From a virus (taxonomy: Duplodnaviria > Caudoviricetes), in the IMG/VR virus record IMGVR_UViG_3300033121_002354, positions 49,040 to 113,039 of that record: a stretch of 64,000 nt of DNA. One strand, given 5' to 3'. Below the pieces are notes generated by a model. That model searched no databases, had not been told where the DNA came from, and saw nothing but the letters and a program-made list of their open reading frames with translations. A program made the translations under genes and the position numbers. Positions 30,352 through 54,445 of this stretch are shown piece after piece. Every line of letters starts with the position of its first letter. Position 1 is the stretch's first letter.

Positions 30352-31468
30352 GTCTTTCTTTTTGGCTGGTCTTTTAGAAAAAACCGGAAAACTAAATTAC
30401 CTGTCGGACTACGAAGTGAAAATAAGTCAAAACGGTCCAGAAGATGGTATTACGGTTGCCGGAAACCAAATAACCATTCACAAGCCAACTCTTTTGAGCA
30501 AAACTCTGTTCAATTTGAGCTATGCTCTACTAAGCAAAGACTTGCCAGATCAAGAAAAGAATTATCTGTCCCTCTTTCTGTGGATAGAAATAAATGAATA
30601 TCTTAATAAAGGCACTTTCTCAGAAAAACCACCAATATTAAGAGGCGGAAACGAGTTTTTATCTACCGTTTTACCCATAAACAAAATATTCCAACCCATA
30701 ACTGACCAAATTATAAAACTTTATCCAGTGTTACATATGAAATGTGCTTATACAGACCCCTGTAGAATAATAAATTCATTTTCCGAATTAAGCACCATAA
30801 CACTCGAAAATGCAGTTCAAACAAAACTTCGGTCTATTCCTAACTCAAAATATCCTCTTATTTTGTGTAATAACTCTGTTCAAAATCCTGCTGCTTGTGA
30901 ATCCACTATATTCATAAAGCAACTGGAGCTAAATTTTGGAGAAGAAAAAACCCAAAGAATATTGAAGCATTTATTATTGAACGAATTTGATATTTTACAA
31001 GCATTTGTGACAATATTGAACATTTGTTCCATAGATGGAATGCTTAATTATGTAGAAGAATTTTTACAATGCATAAAAAGATATGTTAAGCTTAATGATG
31101 ATGAAGCAGAACAATGTGTACAAATAACAACGCTTGTCTTCAACAATATTCCGTTTCTAAGCAATAAAGTTGCACAGTACACGAATCAGTCTGTCGAAAA
31201 ACAATGGATGTGGTGGGGCACAATGGTGGGACTGACAGAAAAACAATTGGGCGGAAACCGACACCAAAGACGAGATGCAACAGAAAACATGAAGCCAATT
31301 GAAGACAAACTAAAAGAGATGATCAAAATTTACGAACAAAAAACTGGAAAAAAAGACCTTTGTATTGAAGACTTACTAAAAGTGGTCCGGGAATACGACG
31401 AAAGCAAAACTATTGAACCAGGGCGTATTTACGAACGACTTTTAGGAGAAAATCGTATATGGCAGTAA
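30344..31468 (+). CDS. Hypothetical protein
   Basis: 374-aa ORF coupled to neighbours; no recognised motif. Confidence 0.65.
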   Translation: MIESFFLAGLLEKTGKLNYLSDYEVKISQNGPEDGITVAGNQITIHKPTLLSKTLFNLSYALLSKDLPDQEKNYLSLFLWIEINEYLNKGTFSEKPPILRGGNEFLSTVLPINKIFQPITDQIIKLYPVLHMKCAYTDPCRIINSFSELSTITLENAVQTKLRSIPNSKYPLILCNNSVQNPAACESTIFIKQLELNFGEEKTQRILKHLLLNEFDILQAFVTILNICSIDGMLNYVEEFLQCIKRYVKLNDDEAEQCVQITTLVFNNIPFLSNKVAQYTNQSVEKQWMWWGTMVGLTEKQLGGNRHQRRDATENMKPIEDKLKEMIKIYEQKTGKKDLCIEDLLKVVREYDESKTIEPGRIYERLLGENRIWQ

Positions 31469-31650
31469 ACCAAGATTATTTGAAGCAGGTCATAGATAAG
31501 GCGAGTTATGCCTATAACCTACTTCACTCTGGTAAAGATGTGCAATGCTTTTTTGCACTTCAAGGCTTGTTAACAATGCTGGAAAATTTAAAAACAATGG
31601 AGGCAGAAAATGTTTGTGAAACACAGCAGCCCAAAACAGGAACAAGTTGA
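31459..31650 (+). CDS. Small hypothetical protein
   Basis: 63 aa; AGGAG upstream. Confidence 0.5.
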   Translation: MAVNQDYLKQVIDKASYAYNLLHSGKDVQCFFALQGLLTMLENLKTMEAENVCETQQPKTGTS

Positions 31651-31807
31651 AGTCAGTAAAGAACTTCGAAAATGTTCCAATTGCGGAAAACCATATATGC
31701 CAACTTGTGGCAATTGTGGTTGCAGTTCTCTTTGTCCGTCCTGTAAACAAAGCAGCACTTCAATCAACGTTGACTCATTTAGCAAAACCCTAAAAGAACA
31801 AAAATAA
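31610..31807 (+). CDS. Small Cys-rich zinc-finger protein
   Basis: CSNC, CGNCGC, CPSC; GGAGG SD upstream. Confidence 0.6.
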   Translation: MFVKHSSPKQEQVEVSKELRKCSNCGKPYMPTCGNCGCSSLCPSCKQSSTSINVDSFSKTLKEQK

Positions 31808-31811
31808 GTAA

Positions 31812-34109
31812 ATGATCACATTAGTATTGGGCAATGTAGATACTCGTATTGTTGGCGAGATATCTGATGAGGAATATTATGACCTCAGAAGATATCTTTC
31901 TTTTCGTCCATCTGGTTTTCTTTTTCACCCCCTTTACAGAAAGAAAATGTGGGATGGATGGGCCAGACTTATTAAGAAGAATAAAGGCGGAATCACCTTT
32001 CCAAGCGGGCTTCTTTCTCTCGCAAAAGAAGGATTAACAGAGCTAAATATTCCATTTTGCGTAAAAGATGGTCGTACAAAACCACAACCAACTCTGGAAA
32101 TAGAATTAAGCTCAAATATAGTTTTGCGTGATTATCAGGAGCTGATAAAAAATCACTCATGCAATACAGGAAGAGGTCTTATAGGACTAGCGACAGGCGG
32201 GGGAAAAACTGCAACCAGTGCAGCCTTGATTGCCGAACTTAAAGTGAAGCCATTTTTGTTTTTGGTGACTTCTATAGATCTCTTAGAACAAACAGTAGAA
32301 GCTTTCGAAAATTTCTTGGTGCAAAACGGCAAACCTGCAAAGATTGGCAGAGCCGGAAATGGCATTGTTGATTTACAAGATATTACCGTTATGACAGTAC
32401 AAACAGCTATGAGAGCTTTAGGGAAGAAATACAAAAAATACGACTCTGAAAGCTCCGACAGAAAAGAGAACAATGGTGTCATAGCAAAATACCGCAAAGA
32501 ACTAGTTCACTTTATGACAACATGTCAAGGGGTCATATGTGATGAATGTATAACTGGTGATTCTATTGTGCTGACAAAAAATGGCCCACAACGAATGGAC
32601 AAATTAAAAACAGGGCAGGAAGTGCAGAGTTTAAGTGGTAATAGTGTTGTATGGAAAAAAATAACTCATTTTTATCGCAAAGGGAAGAAAAAGACATTCA
32701 AAGTCCTGCTGAACAACAACCAAAGCATTCGTTGCACAGCAGACCACTTAATCAGGACAAGCAAAGGCTGGAAACCGGCAGGTTCGCTAAAACAGAACGA
32801 CCAGATTTTGTGTTCTGGGAACATGACAGTGGCGGATATGGAGACAGAACTGCATCATTCAGAACTTCATGCCATCCAGAATTATCACTTATCTATAACA
32901 TTACTCACGTTAATGGCAAAAAACATCTCTCAGAACAGTGGTTGGACAGAATTGGAGCAATCGGAATGGCATGGTGGGTTTGCGATGATGGAAGCAGATC
33001 AAAATCATCAATCAGACTTCATACAGAAGGGTACTCGCTGCAGGAAGTCGAGATCGCAGCAAGCTGGATATCACGTATATACGGAAAAGTTTCCATCTAC
33101 AAATATAAACATAAAGAATACAGAACACTCGGTCTCGGAAAAACAGCAACCGATAGAGTTATTACAGAAATCGCGGAATACGTTCCAAAATGTATGGAAT
33201 ATAAACTTTGCAAGTGTTAACTCGGTAGAACCTTGTGGCGAAGAAGAAGTTTTTGATATATCGGTTGAAGACACTCATTGTTTTTTTGCAAATGGAATGC
33301 TTGTTCATAACTGTCAACATTGGAGAGCAGACCAGTGTCAAACTGTAACCAAAACTCTCGAAAATGCATATTACCGTTTTGGAGCTTCTGCCACCGCCTT
33401 CAGAGATGAAGGTGATGATATGGCTATTCAATCGTGCTTTGGTAAGTTTTTGTGCAATATAAAAGCATCTGAACTTATTGAAAAAGGATATCTTGTACAA
33501 CCAACAATCAACATTGTTCACTATAAACCAAAATTTGTAAAAGGAAACACTTATCAAGAAATATACAAAGAGTGCATTGTTGAGGATAAAAAGTACAATG
33601 CGTTGGTAGCAACCACAGCAAATAACTATATTAACCAAGGACGATCTGTCCTTATACTTGTACAGCAAATTAATCACGGCGAATCTCTCGCCAAGATGAT
33701 TCCTGGTGCTCTTTTTGTTTGTGGTGATAGTCCAAAAAAAGAGAGAACAGCAGCACTCAAAATGCTGCATAGCAGGAAAATAAAATGCATTGTTAGTACA
33801 TCAATATTTGATGAGGGCGTAGATATACGGTCGCTAGATACACTTTTAATGGCTGGCGGCGGAAAAGCAAAAACAAGAGCACTTCAACGTGTTGGCAGAG
33901 TATTAAGGATATTTGATGGGAAGAAAGATGCTATCGTGATAGACTTTAGTATTCATGTTGAATATTTGTTAGGCCACGCAAAAGAAAGAGAAAAAATTTA
34001 CAGGACAGAACCGTTGTTCAATATAGAACACATCCCAAATAAAAATGACCCACCAGAAGTTTGGGAAAATCTTGGATTTTCAAATCACAAAACTCAAAAG
34101 CTATTGTAG
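31812..34109 (+). CDS. Superfamily 2 DNA helicase (UvsW/ResIII-like) with intein
   Basis: Q-motif LRDYQ, Walker A ATGGGKT, motif II DE|CQH after splicing, SAT, FDEGVD, QRVGRVLR. Confidence 0.9.
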   Translation: MITLVLGNVDTRIVGEISDEEYYDLRRYLSFRPSGFLFHPLYRKKMWDGWARLIKKNKGGITFPSGLLSLAKEGLTELNIPFCVKDGRTKPQPTLEIELSSNIVLRDYQELIKNHSCNTGRGLIGLATGGGKTATSAALIAELKVKPFLFLVTSIDLLEQTVEAFENFLVQNGKPAKIGRAGNGIVDLQDITVMTVQTAMRALGKKYKKYDSESSDRKENNGVIAKYRKELVHFMTTCQGVICDECITGDSIVLTKNGPQRMDKLKTGQEVQSLSGNSVVWKKITHFYRKGKKKTFKVLLNNNQSIRCTADHLIRTSKGWKPAGSLKQNDQILCSGNMTVADMETELHHSELHAIQNYHLSITLLTLMAKNISQNSGWTELEQSEWHGGFAMMEADQNHQSDFIQKGTRCRKSRSQQAGYHVYTEKFPSTNINIKNTEHSVSEKQQPIELLQKSRNTFQNVWNINFASVNSVEPCGEEEVFDISVEDTHCFFANGMLVHNCQHWRADQCQTVTKTLENAYYRFGASATAFRDEGDDMAIQSCFGKFLCNIKASELIEKGYLVQPTINIVHYKPKFVKGNTYQEIYKECIVEDKKYNALVATTANNYINQGRSVLILVQQINHGESLAKMIPGALFVCGDSPKKERTAALKMLHSRKIKCIVSTSIFDEGVDIRSLDTLLMAGGGKAKTRALQRVGRVLRIFDGKKDAIVIDFSIHVEYLLGHAKEREKIYRTEPLFNIEHIPNKNDPPEVWENLGFSNHKTQKLL
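32547..33311 (+). mobile_element. Intein (255 aa) inserted in helicase motif II
   Basis: Starts CITGDS after DE; block B CTADH; block F VFDISVEDTHCFFANG; ends LVHN followed by +1 Cys. Confidence 0.93.
32651..33220 (+). CDS. Alternative-frame LAGLIDADG endonuclease (C-terminal half) nested in the intein
   Basis: NGKKHL..AWWVCDDGS..LHTEGYSLQEVE..VPKCMEYKL aligns by eye with the second half of the 26080-26934 endonuclease; -1 frame relative to the helicase; expression unproven. Confidence 0.7.
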   Translation: MEKNNSFLSQREEKDIQSPAEQQPKHSLHSRPLNQDKQRLETGRFAKTERPDFVFWEHDSGGYGDRTASFRTSCHPELSLIYNITHVNGKKHLSEQWLDRIGAIGMAWWVCDDGSRSKSSIRLHTEGYSLQEVEIAASWISRIYGKVSIYKYKHKEYRTLGLGKTATDRVITEIAEYVPKCMEYKLCKC

Positions 34110-34118
34110 GTTCCTGTT

Positions 34119-35498
34119 ATGCCAATTCAATTTAAAACGAAGTTCAAATGGGACACCGAAACTTCCCCGAACGAAACGTTCCAAAGACCACTGCACGAAG
34201 TAATTCAACTCATTCGCCACTTACCAAATCCATACATTGGTAATAAAAAGAAACTGTTGCGTTCACTTCATAACTTCATGCAGAACAACAACTTGAAATT
34301 TGACACCTTTCTTGATGCATTCACAGGAAGTGGAGTTGTCGGGTTGTTTATGAAAGCTATGGGTAAGCGAGTTATTGCCAATGATTTACTGGCTTGTTCA
34401 TACTTAAATGCTGTTGCTCTAATAGAAAATTCTGGAACAACTTTGTCTCCAGATCAGATTGGATCTATTTTGAACAAAAATACGCTAGAAAGCGACTTTG
34501 TTCAAAAGAACTGGATGAGCACCTCAAACACGACTCAATTGCGTAGAAGATTTACTGAAAATGAAGCTATCCAGTTAGATCACATTAGATCCAACATTAA
34601 AAACTTAAGCCAGTTTACCGCTCAAAGTATTGGATTAACAGCAAACAGTTTAGTGTGCATGAGAATGCCATTCGGTTTTGCTGATAGAAGCATTGATATT
34701 TACAACCACCGCAGAAAACAAATAGAAAAGTATGGAAAAGACTCAGGTAATCACGATAGACGTATAGGAATTTATTACGATGACAATCTAGATCTTGATT
34801 TCAAGAAGTGGTTTCCAAAGTACGTAGGATCTATTAATAAAGCCGTCTTAAACAACTCACAGATTGTTAATGACGCAAAAATACAACATGCCTTGGCATT
34901 CTTCGGTATACAGAATTATTTGTATCACGAAGCATTTAAAGGCGGCAGATTGAACAACGGACAAATACTGAAAAGGGTAGATACTCGCAAAGAACAAGAT
35001 GGAGTGATGAGATTTACCCAAGAAGATGTTCAAAAGATGTCTTTTGCAGAATTAAGCTCTGTAGGAAAGTGCAGTTGTATTGCTACTAATTGTGACGTTA
35101 TAGATCTGTTACAAAGCGGATTTGTAGACGTTGAATGTGGTTATTTTGATCCTCCATATGGTGGAAGTTCAAGTGATTACCTGTCAATGTATCAGTTTTT
35201 TGAAGAATTTATCTACGAAGAACAAATTGAAAATCTTCCCCATTTCAAATCTATGGATAGATTTTCGAAGAAAACTGATTACGAAAAGAACTTTCTTGAT
35301 CTGTTAGATGCTGCCAAGAACATTCCTATATGGGTGTTTTCATATAACGATAAGTCATGGCAGGGTTTAGAGCATATTATTTCCCTGATTAAAAAGTTTA
35401 GAGGCCATGTAGTTTCCGAAATTGTGGACTACAAATACAAATACAGAAGCAAAAATAACGCTGCGGGCAAAGAATATTTGATCGCGGCAACAGTATAA
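34119..35498 (+). CDS. DNA adenine methyltransferase (Dam/D12, alpha class)
   Basis: PYIGNKKKL, DAFTGSGVV (SAM binding), VIANDL, YFDPPY, WVFSYN, KEYLI. Confidence 0.88.
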   Translation: MPIQFKTKFKWDTETSPNETFQRPLHEVIQLIRHLPNPYIGNKKKLLRSLHNFMQNNNLKFDTFLDAFTGSGVVGLFMKAMGKRVIANDLLACSYLNAVALIENSGTTLSPDQIGSILNKNTLESDFVQKNWMSTSNTTQLRRRFTENEAIQLDHIRSNIKNLSQFTAQSIGLTANSLVCMRMPFGFADRSIDIYNHRRKQIEKYGKDSGNHDRRIGIYYDDNLDLDFKKWFPKYVGSINKAVLNNSQIVNDAKIQHALAFFGIQNYLYHEAFKGGRLNNGQILKRVDTRKEQDGVMRFTQEDVQKMSFAELSSVGKCSCIATNCDVIDLLQSGFVDVECGYFDPPYGGSSSDYLSMYQFFEEFIYEEQIENLPHFKSMDRFSKKTDYEKNFLDLLDAAKNIPIWVFSYNDKSWQGLEHIISLIKKFRGHVVSEIVDYKYKYRSKNNAAGKEYLIAATV

Positions 35499-35509
35499 TT
35501 TAAACACAT

Positions 35510-36000
35510 ATTCAAGGCTCTCCCACTTCCTTGTTGGAGCCGCGACGGCAATTTTACACCCAGAGATGGGAATGACCGAAACAAGGTGAACTATTTCGTC
35601 GAATGCCATCTATTCAATCGCTTTGGCATTTGCATTAGAGATTTAGTTCGAATAACTATTTTAGCGGTTGAAGTGTCATGTCGCTTTTACAAGAATGAGT
35701 CCATTGCCCTCCTTACGGATACGTGCTTAAAACTCAATAAGTATTAGTAGTGGCTCACAGGCGTGCTACCAGTTGTTATGGAAACCCTGACTGGATTAAT
35801 AGACACGTCGTGGCAGGGGTCTGAGATTAGGTTAAAGCCATATGGTGAATAAGCACCCTGTTCTGCTTAATGCAGGATTGAATACCTAAAACTCATCGAA
35901 ACGCTCAGCTTTATACTGCAGTTTCGTTAGAGAATGACCACTGGTAAAGTAAGTCTCTTTTTTGGGCCTTATTTTTTACCAGGGGTTACTTTCTCTACAA
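35510..36000 (+). ncRNA. Putative large structured non-coding RNA of unassigned family
   Basis: Only long intergenic gap in the window. Nested stems: CCTTGTT 35529/AACAAGG 35586 enclosing GCCG-cga-CGGC and CCCA-GAGA-TGGG; GAACTA 35588/TAGTTC 35649 enclosing AATGCCA/TGGCATT; CCAGT/ACTGG; CGAAAC/GTTTCG; long 35928-35997 stem. G-U pairs favour the + strand. Confidence 0.6.
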
Positions 36001-36025
36001 CTCGCATTACCTGCAATCAGTAAAT

Positions 36026-36054
36026 TTGACCCGTTGAACAATTTATCTTATATT
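36026..36054 (+). promoter_or_regulatory. Sigma70-like promoter, probably giving a leaderless rnhA mRNA
   Basis: TTGACC-N17-TATATT-N6-ATG(36061); no SD. Confidence 0.6.
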
Positions 36055-36060
36055 TGACAC

Positions 36061-36513
36061 ATGAATTACGAACTATATACAGATGGGTCTTGCAACCCAA
36101 ATCCAGGTGAAGGTGGTTGGGCGTTTATAATAGTAGAAGTAGATGAGCCAAGGTCTATCAAGTCAACTGGAAGTGGATACGAACCAGTATCTACTAACAA
36201 CCGCATGGAAATGATGGCGTTAATAAAGGGACTTGAAAAGTACAACGAAATTAAAACTCCAGAAGATACTCTTACCGTAGTCACAGATAGTATGTACTTA
36301 TTAAACGGAACAACCAGATGGTCTAAAAAGTGGTGCAAGAACAACTGGACACGTAAACCAAGTCTTAAAAACGTAGATTTGTGGAAACAAATAAGGATTC
36401 TGGACGACTTAACAAAGGGCGTTTTCAGAAAAGTAAAGGGACATGCCGGTGATTATTATAATGAACAAGTAGACGTACTTGCAAAAGCATGTTGTAGTAA
36501 AAATATTTGCTGA
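36061..36513 (+). CDS. rnhA: Ribonuclease HI
   Basis: YTDGSCNPNPGEGGW, STNNRMEM, VTDSMY, KNVDLW, VKGHAG..YNEQVDVLA. Confidence 0.95.
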   Translation: MNYELYTDGSCNPNPGEGGWAFIIVEVDEPRSIKSTGSGYEPVSTNNRMEMMALIKGLEKYNEIKTPEDTLTVVTDSMYLLNGTTRWSKKWCKNNWTRKPSLKNVDLWKQIRILDDLTKGVFRKVKGHAGDYYNEQVDVLAKACCSKNIC

Positions 36514-37403
36514 ACACGTCTTTTAGATCTTATCTTTATCTTACTATGGACGATAAAGAACAGCTTATTCGGTATCTTGATCGAATAAACAAGAAAACTC
36601 CACAGACTCCCGTTCCAAACGACCAGCCCCAACAAAAAAGGTTGTTCACTGTATCAATTCTTAACGAAAAACCGTATGAGCTTGATTATCAACTGGTCAA
36701 GAGAAACAAGTTTCCACCAGACATTTCAAAGCTTTCAAAGTGGAACAATGCAGATTTTATTAAATACATTCTGTCAAAAACTAAAAACGTATTTATTGAA
36801 AGTACTCCAAGTAACAGTTTGCTGCTTAATCATTTAAGAAATAATCTGTCTAAATCAATAGGTTTTCACTTAGAAGATGAAACTCATGTATGTTCGAATC
36901 ACGAATTAAAGGACTACATTGACTATTGGATCAATGTAGTATCCAGCAATAAGAAGACCAATGTTGATTGGATGTGTAGTAAGAAATCGGTTAGACAATA
37001 TGTGTCTAATTATTATGTTGCCTCAAATTACAAACAAACCTTAGAAGAACTTATATTGAGTGGAAAATTCGAAGATGCCTTATTGGAGCATGGGATAGTA
37101 AATTTCTACGAAAGAAGTATCAAGAAAAACAAAGTAAAGAAAACACTTACTATTCTCAAAGAGACAATAGACTCTTTGGATCAACAGCGGTTTTTGCAAG
37201 TTTTTAAACAACTTCTGAAATCTTATCCTTACAAAATAGAACAGAAGTTTAAAGTGAATTTTATTATAAGAGAGGCGATAACAAAGTTTGATCTGAAGAA
37301 GTGGTTTGACTGTGATTTTGATGGAAAATTGTTTAAGACAGAAGAAGAAATAGCACGTATAAATCAAAAGAAGAAAAGAGATTTAGGTGATCAATGGGTG
37401 TAA
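36507..37403 (+). CDS. Hypothetical basic protein (start may be ATG 36546)
   Basis: Long Lys-rich ORF between rnhA and the AAA/DnaC/DnaB genes. Confidence 0.65.
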   Translation: MLNTSFRSYLYLTMDDKEQLIRYLDRINKKTPQTPVPNDQPQQKRLFTVSILNEKPYELDYQLVKRNKFPPDISKLSKWNNADFIKYILSKTKNVFIESTPSNSLLLNHLRNNLSKSIGFHLEDETHVCSNHELKDYIDYWINVVSSNKKTNVDWMCSKKSVRQYVSNYYVASNYKQTLEELILSGKFEDALLEHGIVNFYERSIKKNKVKKTLTILKETIDSLDQQRFLQVFKQLLKSYPYKIEQKFKVNFIIREAITKFDLKKWFDCDFDGKLFKTEEEIARINQKKKRDLGDQWV

Positions 37404-48891: not shown

Positions 48892-50186
48892 ATGACAATA
48901 AAAAAATCTGATTTCGCTCATTTGCATTGTCATAGTGTTTAGCTCTGCCCCGTCTTAGTGGCGGGGTAGAGCTAACACTAGTTTTTTCAGCATTTGATGG
49001 CTTTTCCCAGATAAAAGATCTTCCTAGAACTGCCAAGTTGCATGGCCAGCGGGCTATAGCGTTGACAGATCATGGTACACTTGGTGGAGCAATACAGTTT
49101 ATAAAGGCATGCAGAGAAGAAAATATAAAGCCAATTTTAGGATCAGAATTTTATTGCAGTCGTAATCGCAGAGCAAAATCAAAAAAGGAACAACCAGAGG
49201 GCAAACGGGGCAATAGACACTTAAATTTGTTTGCCAAAAACCTTACGGGCTATAAAAATCTTTGTACGCTTTCTCAGCGTTCTTATCTTGAGGGATACTA
49301 TTATTCACCAAGAATAGACTTTGAGTTATTGCAAGAATTTAGTAAAGGATTGATTTGCTCAAGTGCGTGCCTCAGCAATGTAATCAACTGGAACCTGTCG
49401 ATAGACAGATATGACCTTGCAAAAAAAGCAGCCACTATTCTCAAGGATATTTTTAAGAAAGATTTTTATCTTGAAATGATGTATCATGGAATGGATACAC
49501 AAAGCAAGATACTTCCATTAATCAAAAAGCTGTCAGTAGAGTTGGATATAAAAACCATTCCGACATTTGACAGTCATTACACAAACAAGGAAGACGCCAA
49601 ATATCAAGAAATAGTGGAATGTATTTCTCAGAAGAGATGTTACAAAGATCCAGACCGATATCATTTTCCTTATCAGGAATTTTATATCAAGTCTACAGAA
49701 GAGGTGTGTAAGGTATTTGGTCACTTACCGCAAACGATCAAGAACACCCAAGAGATAGTAGACAAATGTGATTTGGATGATCTTAAGTTTGGCGGCATGC
49801 TTCTGCCCAAGTTTGATGTTCCCATAGGGTTTGAAAGTGATTATAATTATTTAGCACATCTTGCTTGGGACGGACTTAAGAAAAAGGGAAAAGATAAAGA
49901 TCCAAGATATGTAGAGCGGTTAACTCTTGAGTTGAGCGACACCAAGTTGGTGTGGATAACCAAAAAGCTAGATTTCAAGGCTTACTTTCTTATAGTGTGG
50001 GATTTCTGCAATTTCATGAAGAAAGAGAAAATTCCATATGACGTTAGAGGTTCTGGTAACGGCTCTCTGTTGCTTTGGTGTTTGGGAATAACTAACATTG
50101 ATAGTGTATTGTACGGTTTGAGTTGGCCCCGATTCTTAGGATTTGATTCGGTCAAATATATCTGTTTAGATGATATTGGGTTATAA
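48892..50186 (+). CDS. dnaE: DNA polymerase III alpha, N-terminal subunit (PHP + part of palm), interrupted by a 44-nt insert; join 48892-48939 with 48984-50186 (416 aa)
   Basis: MTIKKSDFAHLHCHSV + FSAFDGFSQIKDL..AIALTDHG rebuilds the HxHSxYSxxDG motif; KPILGSEFY, GYKNL, RGSGNGSL; AAGGGGG SD before 48892. Confidence 0.9.
48933..48983 (+). other. Candidate translational-bypass element (GTT take-off, TAG, hairpin, GTT landing)
   Basis: GTT 48937-39, TAG 48940-42, 21-bp stem 48933-48980 with two G-U pairs, one bulge and a 5-nt loop, GTT 48981-83 in the downstream dnaE frame. Confidence 0.75.
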
Positions 50187-53590: not shown

Positions 53591-54325
53591 ATGGCTACGA
53601 AATTGGATTGGAACACGGTTCCAAAGTCAGGGTTTAAGTCTGGTGGTGGCAACAACCCTGATCGTCGAGAGATTTTGCGAATCAAGTTTACAGATGACTG
53701 CTCGCATATCGTTCGTCCTGTAGGCCCACCAGTTGGTTTCTTTAGTTTTTTCTCTCCTTCATTACGCCGCTCATTCCGTTGTGATTTGGGTAATGCAGCG
53801 GTTGCAAAGCAGCTTGCAGAAGTCCTTAATTGTGAACCTTCGCAAAAGTTTGCTATTAACGTAATTGATAGAAGCGATAACGTGATTAAAATCATGGAAG
53901 CTCCTATGACGGTATACGAGCAGATGGTTGACGTTTGCTCCGTTAACAAGACAAAGGCTGGTGGCAAAAACGGCGGCGACTGGAAGGTATCTACAAAGCC
54001 AGTCAAACGCAAGGGTGGTGGTCAGAGCCGTCGTTACACTGCAAACTTCTTAGGGAAAGAGCCGTTTACCGAAGAGGAATTGGCTAGAATCGAGAATGAA
54101 GACCCTTCAAAGAATGAATGGTATATTCTTGATGACATTTACAAAGAAGACGATCCAGAAAGTGTGAAGCAGCTTATTGAGAAATTTGGGTCAGGCTCCG
54201 ATTCTCCTGCTCCAAAGTCGTATAAAAAATTGGACAGTGAAGAAGACAGCTTTAGCAAAAAGCCCGCAAAGGCTGTTTCCGCTGCAAAAGTAGAAGAGAT
54301 GGAAGATGTTGATTTAGATTTCTAA
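53591..54325 (+). CDS. Putative phage single-stranded DNA-binding protein
   Basis: FAINVIDRSDNVIKIME OB-like core, acidic-aromatic tail EDVDLDF, next to recA; AAGGAG SD favours ATG 53591. Confidence 0.6.
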   Translation: MATKLDWNTVPKSGFKSGGGNNPDRREILRIKFTDDCSHIVRPVGPPVGFFSFFSPSLRRSFRCDLGNAAVAKQLAEVLNCEPSQKFAINVIDRSDNVIKIMEAPMTVYEQMVDVCSVNKTKAGGKNGGDWKVSTKPVKRKGGGQSRRYTANFLGKEPFTEEELARIENEDPSKNEWYILDDIYKEDDPESVKQLIEKFGSGSDSPAPKSYKKLDSEEDSFSKKPAKAVSAAKVEEMEDVDLDF

Positions 54326-54329
54326 GATT

Positions 54330-54445
54330 GCCCAGCGTTTCTGCTGGCACTAACCTGACCTTGGAACAGTTAGTGAAATCCTGGCTATAAACATTTTCTC
54401 TGTGGGCACACAGATAGAATGATGCAAGATAGACGAGGTTGGTTA
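54330..54445 (+). ncRNA. Possible structured RNA / cis-regulatory leader of recA
   Basis: Hairpins CCAGC/GCTGG, CACTAA-CTG/CAG-TTAGTG, CATT-TCTGTG/CACAGA-AATG, CCT-CTAT/ATAG-AGG. Confidence 0.35.

Follow-up and report, generated by a model that had tools for sequence, protein, structure and literature searches.

Introduction

The ColE1 primer RNA II is transcribed from an upstream promoter, forms a persistent RNA–DNA hybrid at a downstream origin, is cleaved by RNase H and has an antisense partner, RNA I. In the polycistronic mRNAs of phages, for example those of the T7 early region, long intercistronic hairpins act as RNase III processing or 3′-stabilising sites. At the R-loop origins oriF and oriG of phage T4, a promoter precedes an A+T-rich unwinding element, and the minimal origin spans about 100 bp (PMC3016281). 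ROOL (RF03087) and GOLLD (RF01998) are large ornate RNAs of phages and prophages (PMC12286853), and long GC-rich intergenic regions are an established criterion for finding structured RNAs (PMC8723152, PMC8632094).

Here we analysed a 562-nt intergenic region within a stretch of 64,000 nt of viral DNA (hereafter, the window), which comprises the last 64 kb of the 113-kb record IMGVR_UViG_3300033121_002354 (positions 49,040 to 113,039). The record is rated 23% complete and is thus a fragment of a huge phage. The original prediction, made from the sequence of the window, had placed here a large, densely structured phage RNA, either of a new class or similar to ROOL and GOLLD, and had also suggested an R-loop primer of the ColE1 type. 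The non-coding region ahead of the RNase H and replisome genes is indeed present, with exact bounds of 35499–36060, from the stop codon of a methyltransferase gene (TAA, 35496–35498) to the ATG of an RNase H gene at 36061.

Compared with the described systems, the gap shows partial likenesses only. It resembles RNA II in being untranslated over about 550 nt near replication functions and RNase H; however, it has neither an antisense partner nor a downstream origin, its linkage to RNase H is not conserved, and it lies upstream of a promoter pointing away from it. As at T4 oriF and oriG, a UvsW-like helicase and an RNase H are encoded nearby, whereas the gap is GC-rich without an unwinding element, and its promoter at 36026–36054 leads straight into the RNase H open reading frame (ORF). 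Similar to ROOL and GOLLD, it is about 500 nt long and phage-borne, but it gives no covariance-model match to either and lies about 75 kb from the tRNA arrays of the record. Finally, between what appear to be two transcription units it has an imperfect hairpin of roughly 30 bp, interrupted by internal loops and more stable in the sense orientation, which is reminiscent of the T7-type hairpins, although it has no sequence family for comparison.

Results

Nearly all genes of the window lie on the + strand. Upstream of the gap, a UvsW-like SF2 helicase containing an intein (31812–34109; Pfam Intein_splicing and Hint) is followed by a D12-class N6-adenine DNA methyltransferase (34119–35498, + strand; Pfam PF02086), the final gene of this helicase–methylase block. 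Homologs of the methyltransferase are full-length with 40%–60% identity, and the intein of the helicase differs among relatives, some having an intein with a LAGLIDADG domain and others no intein. Downstream of the gap, RNase HI (36061–36513, + strand; Pfam PF00075) is followed by an all-alpha protein of 298 aa (36507–37403, + strand), an AAA+ ATPase, a DnaC-like loader, DnaB and a primase zinc-finger protein. The loader and DnaB are thus located as predicted, and a primase zinc domain is found there too. The 298-aa gene represents the conserved gene 3′ of the slot behind the methylase in every relative, its tblastx matches being genes of 279–282 aa and the C-terminal half of a 568-aa ORF in the relative L007. 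It belongs to no Pfam or PHROG family, and its AlphaFold2 model (pLDDT 79) has no fold match in the PDB. This gene family evolves fast, with 16%–22% identity across the clade (alignment A7), and the L007 homolog has an additional 340 aa fused at its N terminus, which give a weak RepL-like match.

The gap is the longest stretch of the window without an ORF of at least 80 aa. It had been taken for the only large gap; further gaps of 343–453 nt are nevertheless present in the window. Stop codons interrupt all six frames, except for an 82-codon open run in the frame after the methylase stop. The 82-aa frame has no Pfam match, and its HMMER scan against 1.84 billion proteins gave a sole, spurious match to 17 residues of a repeat protein. 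None of the four largest ORFs in or overlapping the gap is a called gene in a collection of 15 billion proteins, tblastx of the gap against the slot contents of relatives yielded nothing, and no Shine–Dalgarno sequence was found for the gap ORFs. The idea of a decayed gene was rejected, as Pfam, tblastx, HMMER and small-ORF comparison were all negative.

As predicted, the gap is more GC-rich than its flanks, with a GC content of 0.411 against 0.358 in coding sequence. The GC content stays at 0.41–0.44 throughout 35500–35950, and that of the first 430 nt, 0.426, falls in the top 1.5% of the 430-nt windows of the genome once tRNA arrays are excluded; GC-rich 430-nt windows are also found within coding regions of the same genome. 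Across the whole 113-kb record, the only other ORF-free gaps of at least 500 nt with a GC content of at least 0.40 are three tRNA arrays with 17 tRNA genes (G000:C1:8477–11882; 17 tRNAs by ARAGORN, 16 by Rfam), which lie beyond the window, some 75 kb upstream of the gap. The other non-tRNA gaps of the record have a GC content of 0.28–0.40, and the 562-nt gap groups with the tRNA arrays. Given that the composition of the RNase H gene is ordinary (GC 0.38, GC3 0.34), the GC excess of the gap is not simply donor DNA. The gap is both longer and more GC-rich than the norm of its genome, the combination by which structured RNAs have been found elsewhere (PMC8723152). We consider the GC-rich, ORF-free stretch 35499–35927 (+ strand) a candidate orphan RNA or 3′ untranslated region of the methylase transcript.

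Folding of the whole gap gave a z-score of −3.5 on the + strand and −1.0 on the − strand. For 20 coding windows of 562 nt from the same genome, the mean was −0.9 (sd 1.6), and two of them reached −3.4 or lower (−4.0 and −4.5). Windows of 200 nt within the gap scored −0.9 to −2.5, values that many coding windows equal or surpass. Upon removal of the terminal hairpin, the remaining 35499–35924 scored −1.15, and 12 of 100 shuffles folded equally well. The description of the region as densely structured is therefore not supported. Comparison with shuffled controls, named beforehand as a possible refutation, gave a divided answer: some 430 nt fold like shuffles and a 70-nt hairpin does not. However, 12 covariation-supported RNAs from sister phages, described below, scored between +0.8 and −3.0, so that the folding-energy test is powerless in these genomes and uninformative either way. 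As z-scores fail to separate proven RNAs from coding sequence, folding like shuffles is no refutation.

Three hairpins on the + strand of the gap were scored. The first, GGCUCU...GGAGCC at 35516–35541 (−9.9 kcal/mol), is not significant (z −1.4); its loop CCUUGUU is complementary, by eye only, to AACAAGG near 35580. The second is the predicted GAGA tetraloop hairpin, CCCA-GAGA-UGGG with 4 bp at 35559–35570 (z −2.9; one of 200 shuffles as stable). The third, at 35928–35997, corresponds to the predicted 70-nt stem with G-U pairs and is a long imperfect hairpin with U-rich inner loops. Its folding is significant, at −29.4 kcal/mol (z −5.6) on the + strand and −20.9 kcal/mol (z −4.3) on the − strand, the difference of 8.5 kcal/mol being due to the G-U pairs. 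A scan of 34800–36800 revealed no intrinsic terminator; it passed over this hairpin because no U-tract lies 3′ of it, and CUACAACUCGC comes next. It is probably a 3′-end, stability or processing signal of the upstream transcript.

The TATAAT noted previously is indeed located at 35494–35499, but the promoter scan gave no −35 partner for it. The only + strand sigma70-like site in the scan is TTGACC-17-TATATT at 36026–36054, 6 nt upstream of the RNase H ATG; the sole − strand site lies inside the RNase H gene, outside the gap. At the corresponding place, the relatives L019 and L021 have TTGACT-17-TATAAT or TAGGAT sites. No Shine–Dalgarno sequence is present between the 36026–36054 promoter and the RNase H ATG; given the 6 nt that separate the −10 element from the ATG, the mRNA of the replication operon may be leaderless. 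Repeats in the gap are short and two-copy only, without iterons or a tandem pattern, and neither DnaA boxes nor GATC sites were found in it. The GC skew within the gap is about 0. Along the genome, it is about 0 across 10–84 kb, and beyond 86 kb it lies at +0.1 to +0.25 for the remainder of the record; this shift of regime, near window positions of about 31000–37000 (genome 80–86 kb), leaves gene orientation unchanged.

Searches for known RNAs and homologs of the gap were negative. At the gathering score, Rfam 15 run on the whole window gave zero matches, and at E-values up to 10 the interval 35300–36260 gave only chance miRNA and snoRNA matches of 18 bits or less. The predicted absence of tRNA, tmRNA, RNase P and group I/II intron signatures was thus borne out (Rfam; ARAGORN for tRNA and tmRNA), and HEARO was not detectable in the gap with Rfam 15 either. 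The proposed likeness to ROOL or GOLLD failed, with no match to either of them or to any other Rfam 15 family even at E-values up to 10. In the loci of relatives and in what remains of the record, gathering and permissive thresholds alike returned tRNAs only. DNA similarity searches of phage records (blastn), the gap's own record and all fetched relative loci retrieved the gap itself or chance matches, and against one related viral record the best that emerged was a 14-nt match (E 0.5). The proposed collection of homologs accordingly came up empty in every collection searched, and hence there is neither covariation nor conservation evidence for the gap.

Syntenic contigs were collected via methyltransferase homologs. 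Each of the five nearest lineages (50%–60% methylase identity) has different content 3′ of the methylase: the 568-aa ORF in L007, a 75-aa ORF in L008, AT-rich spacers in L010 and L013 (232 and 436 nt, respectively) that contain palindromes and T-runs, and a small ORF in L023. The GC contents of the slot spacers of the closest relatives are 0.246 against 0.297 for the locus, 0.289 against 0.302, and 0.326 against 0.338. The AT-rich spacers L013:7366–7801, L010:7363–7594 and L008:6100–6258 have GGUGUAGMACA in common, together with palindromes TATAACAYC...GATGTTATA or ATATCACATG...CATGTGATAT followed by T-runs, which look like operators or terminators before the replication operon. RNase H occupies the slot only in the lineage of the window and is missing there in all syntenic relatives, indicating a lineage-specific insertion. 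Its best non-self homolog among 5.8 billion proteins is 51% identical, its best non-self homologs lie mostly on megabase-sized, apparently bacterial contigs, and its IMG/VR relatives (35%–42% identical) have no gap upstream. As RNase H is unlinked to the slot in relatives, the pairing of the gap with the RNase H gene is a chance feature of this lineage, not a conserved module. An IF3 homolog comes after the 279–282-aa gene in L008, L010 and L013; among the relatives compared (L008, L010, L013, L018, L019 and L021), most encode this homolog between the 260–300-aa gene and the AAA+ ATPase, where the window lacks it.

More distant relatives, with about 45% methylase identity, carry a gap of 420–630 nt at the slot, with a GC content above that of their genomes. 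These sister-clade gaps contain a conserved element of about 250–330 nt, always on the sense strand, at about 22 distinct loci. The element sits 130–550 nt upstream of a 260–300-aa gene and after a UvsW-like helicase and a D12 methylase, as exemplified by L018:6452–6722, L049:3893–4205, L021:6429–6706 and L019:6466–6745 (alignment A3, with about 18 further loci). RNAalifold analysis revealed three helices with compensatory changes. In a pseudoknot-type CCGUN/NACGG helix, the variable pair is GC in six sequences, CG in five and UA in five. A closing helix (P1) of 6–9 bp is present in 16 of 16 sequences and pairs the 3′ end with the 5′ end, immediately behind a conserved CAUA; its strands vary widely in sequence, and its cis score is 19.1 against a trans score of 13.3 (sd 3.0). 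The RNA also has a CGAG hairpin with UAAAAA on its 3′ side and an invariant core of ~70 nt composed of CCAGGCAACGGG, a stem with a GUAGUUGAU loop and ACGUCCUGGUC. The inner stem of the core shows double changes at five of five pairs, and none of 500 shuffles attained the observed covariation. The sister-clade element is a bona fide structured RNA, and at least 17 sister-clade phages carry the covarying RNA at the slot. Neither the full RNA nor its core matches any family in Rfam 15, no description of it was found in the literature, and it is apparently undescribed so far. A tmRNA, suggested by the strings GACGGGAU and CUCGUAAAAA, was rejected, given that ARAGORN and Rfam were negative and that the spacing to a conserved UAA/UAG is not a multiple of three.

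The gap and the sister RNA are alike in slot, strand, GC enrichment and the presence of a sigma70-like promoter on the 3′ side. In both cases, the sequence lies in sense orientation after the helicase–methylase block and upstream of a 260–300-aa gene; the window differs in that RNase H is inserted between the gap and the 298-aa gene. The closing helix, the pseudoknot-type helix and the invariant core are features that can be shown for the sister RNA only, and the gap has neither a sequence nor a core-motif match to it. A family HMM run on the gap alone (nhmmer, filters off) found no match at E-values up to 100, and the core covariance model R1, also with filters off, found nothing, its best score being 3 bits compared with 35–78 bits for 22 matches in methylase-relative loci. 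R1 likewise found the core motif missing in all five nearest relatives. A quick maximum-likelihood tree of the methylase places the six-member clade of the window (support 100) as the sister group of the clade that bears the RNA (support 97), in which 17 of 26 members have the motif; outgroups are without it. Inspection by eye gave only short resemblances, namely ACAUA soon after the methylase stop, a beginning that the family shares, a AUAUGGUGAA segment like that of L049, and a first hairpin loop that can pair downstream. Elsewhere in the window, a 113-nt gap of GC 0.46 upstream of a 412-aa gene (54326–54438) encloses a GCCAGC/GCUGGC-type hairpin, and an R1 match just upstream of it (54183–54227; 10 bits) is at chance level.

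Outside the clade, the ~70-nt core is found in at least 16 unrelated IMG/VR contigs, where it is mostly intergenic (alignment A4, model R1). The loci include L158:77–149(−), L159:7970–8041, L191:6650–6721, L192:13662–13731(−), L196:3398–3469, L223:3508–3576 and L225:3067–3135, among others. In these contigs a variable hairpin and a U-run precede the core on the 5′ side, and the neighbouring genes include SF2 ResIII helicase genes (three contigs) as well as genes for an HU-like protein and for a DNA methylase. Loose pattern scans of viral and genome contigs gave mostly chance matches among those listed: upon rescoring with R1, 13 of the 100 viral loci listed were true members, and none of the genome-contig loci listed passed nhmmer.

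Discussion

The present analysis enables us to propose a putative model of the gap, which we tentatively favour while giving it somewhat less than even weight. The stretch 35499–35927 would be transcribed as the untranslated tail of the helicase–methyltransferase message and would function as an RNA of about 430 nt, a lineage-specific orphan in the slot where sister phages keep their ~300-nt RNA. Its GC content would be held above the genome level because the RNA itself matters. The hairpin at 35928–35997 would end or protect this RNA, as a 3′ stabiliser or an RNase III-type processing site, and the promoter at 36026–36054 would then start the replication operon (RNase H, the 298-aa protein, AAA+ ATPase, loader and DnaB), possibly from a leaderless mRNA. 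This model draws on the GC content of 0.426, the only other long GC-rich gaps of the record being tRNA arrays; on the spacers of the nearest relatives, which lie at or below locus GC while the RNA-bearing gaps of the sister clade lie above it; on the lack of a coding signal and the better folding of the sense strand; and on the covarying RNA at the same slot in at least 17 sister phages, with a promoter layout like that of L019 and L021. Against it stand the lack of any homolog, a 430-nt folding no better than that of shuffles or coding sequence, GC-rich windows of the same size in coding regions, and the lack of a recognisable promoter or terminator delimiting a separate RNA. Furthermore, nothing similar exists in the five nearest relatives, so the gap sequence is evolutionarily young and could be a relic. 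Of the large phage RNA originally predicted, the idea thus stays viable through the tRNA-array-like composition, the missing protein signal and the sister RNA in the slot, but it finds no help in homologs or distinctive folding.

A possible alternative, to which we give slightly less weight, is an ordinary spacer in which only the promoter and the hairpin (as terminator, stabiliser or operator) are functional. The other ~430 nt would then be a relic without function, left behind for instance when RNase H arrived or by an older RNA or gene that has since decayed. In favour of a relic, the content of the slot, a hot spot, differs in each close relative, the RNase H gene is unique to this lineage, and the 430 nt fold like shuffles and have no homolog anywhere searched. 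However, a relic in a genome of 36% GC should drift toward AT, as the spacers of the relatives have done, whereas the GC content of this sequence is among the highest 1.5%, next to an RNase H gene that is fully ameliorated. Moreover, translated similarity to the N-terminal half of the L007 ORF, or to any other protein, is nil. A functional large RNA in the 430 nt that replaces the P1-closed RNA of the sister clade, whether by extreme divergence or by non-homologous substitution, is unlikely. Distinctly less likely is that the gap holds a hyper-diverged or functionally replaced version of that ~300-nt RNA doing the same job. The common slot, the common downstream promoter layout and the by-eye resemblances (ACAUA, the pairing of the first hairpin loop and the AUAUGGUGAA segment) would fit such a version, but these resemblances are short, neither the family HMM nor R1 recognises the gap, and the motif is lacking in the five nearest relatives and the outgroups, with the clade of the window sister to, not nested in, the RNA-bearing clade.

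We regard a replication origin, or an R-loop primer RNA processed by the adjacent RNase H in the manner of ColE1 RNA II or T4 oriF, as quite improbable. The gap does head a replication block near a UvsW-like helicase and RNase H, the GC skew rises just downstream of it, and in T4, UvsW unwinds the R-loops used at origins, which RNase H very likely processes (PMC3016281). Yet the skew changes in magnitude and not in sign while gene orientation is constant, and a skew of about 0 within the gap means that the RNA would not be G-rich. It also speaks against an origin or primer that RNase H is unlinked to the slot in every relative, that the GC-rich gap offers no A+T-rich unwinding element, iterons or DnaA boxes, and that transcription from the one good promoter would lead away from the element. 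Lower still is the probability of unrecognised small protein genes, such as a 53-aa GTG ORF at 35586–35747 or a 31-aa ORF at 35962–36057. Small ORFs do occur 3′ of the methylase in L008, L078 and L023; these, however, are unrelated to each other and to the window. The stop-free run of 82 codons would be expected by chance in about one-third of such gaps, as estimated from stop-codon frequency, and the candidate ORFs lack a Shine–Dalgarno sequence, a family match and a real homolog and were never called as genes.

In summary, the gap is a candidate for a lineage-specific orphan RNA or 3′-UTR element ending in a stabilising hairpin. By itself it is a weak candidate, and its value is in leading to the sister-clade RNA, the more solid discovery, which lies outside the window. 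Unrelated phages also have the core of that RNA, in several cases adjacent to UvsW/RAD25-type helicase genes, and it belongs to no Rfam family. Should the 430 nt prove to be a functional replacement of the sister RNA, the slot would demand an RNA, the window would present a second, unrelated solution, and the sister RNA with its ~70-nt core would constitute a new class of RNA linked to the replication or recombination of phage DNA. If the slot does require an RNA, the two lineages would offer a natural comparison for the role of a large RNA at the entry of a replication module, be it transcript processing, replication control or something else.
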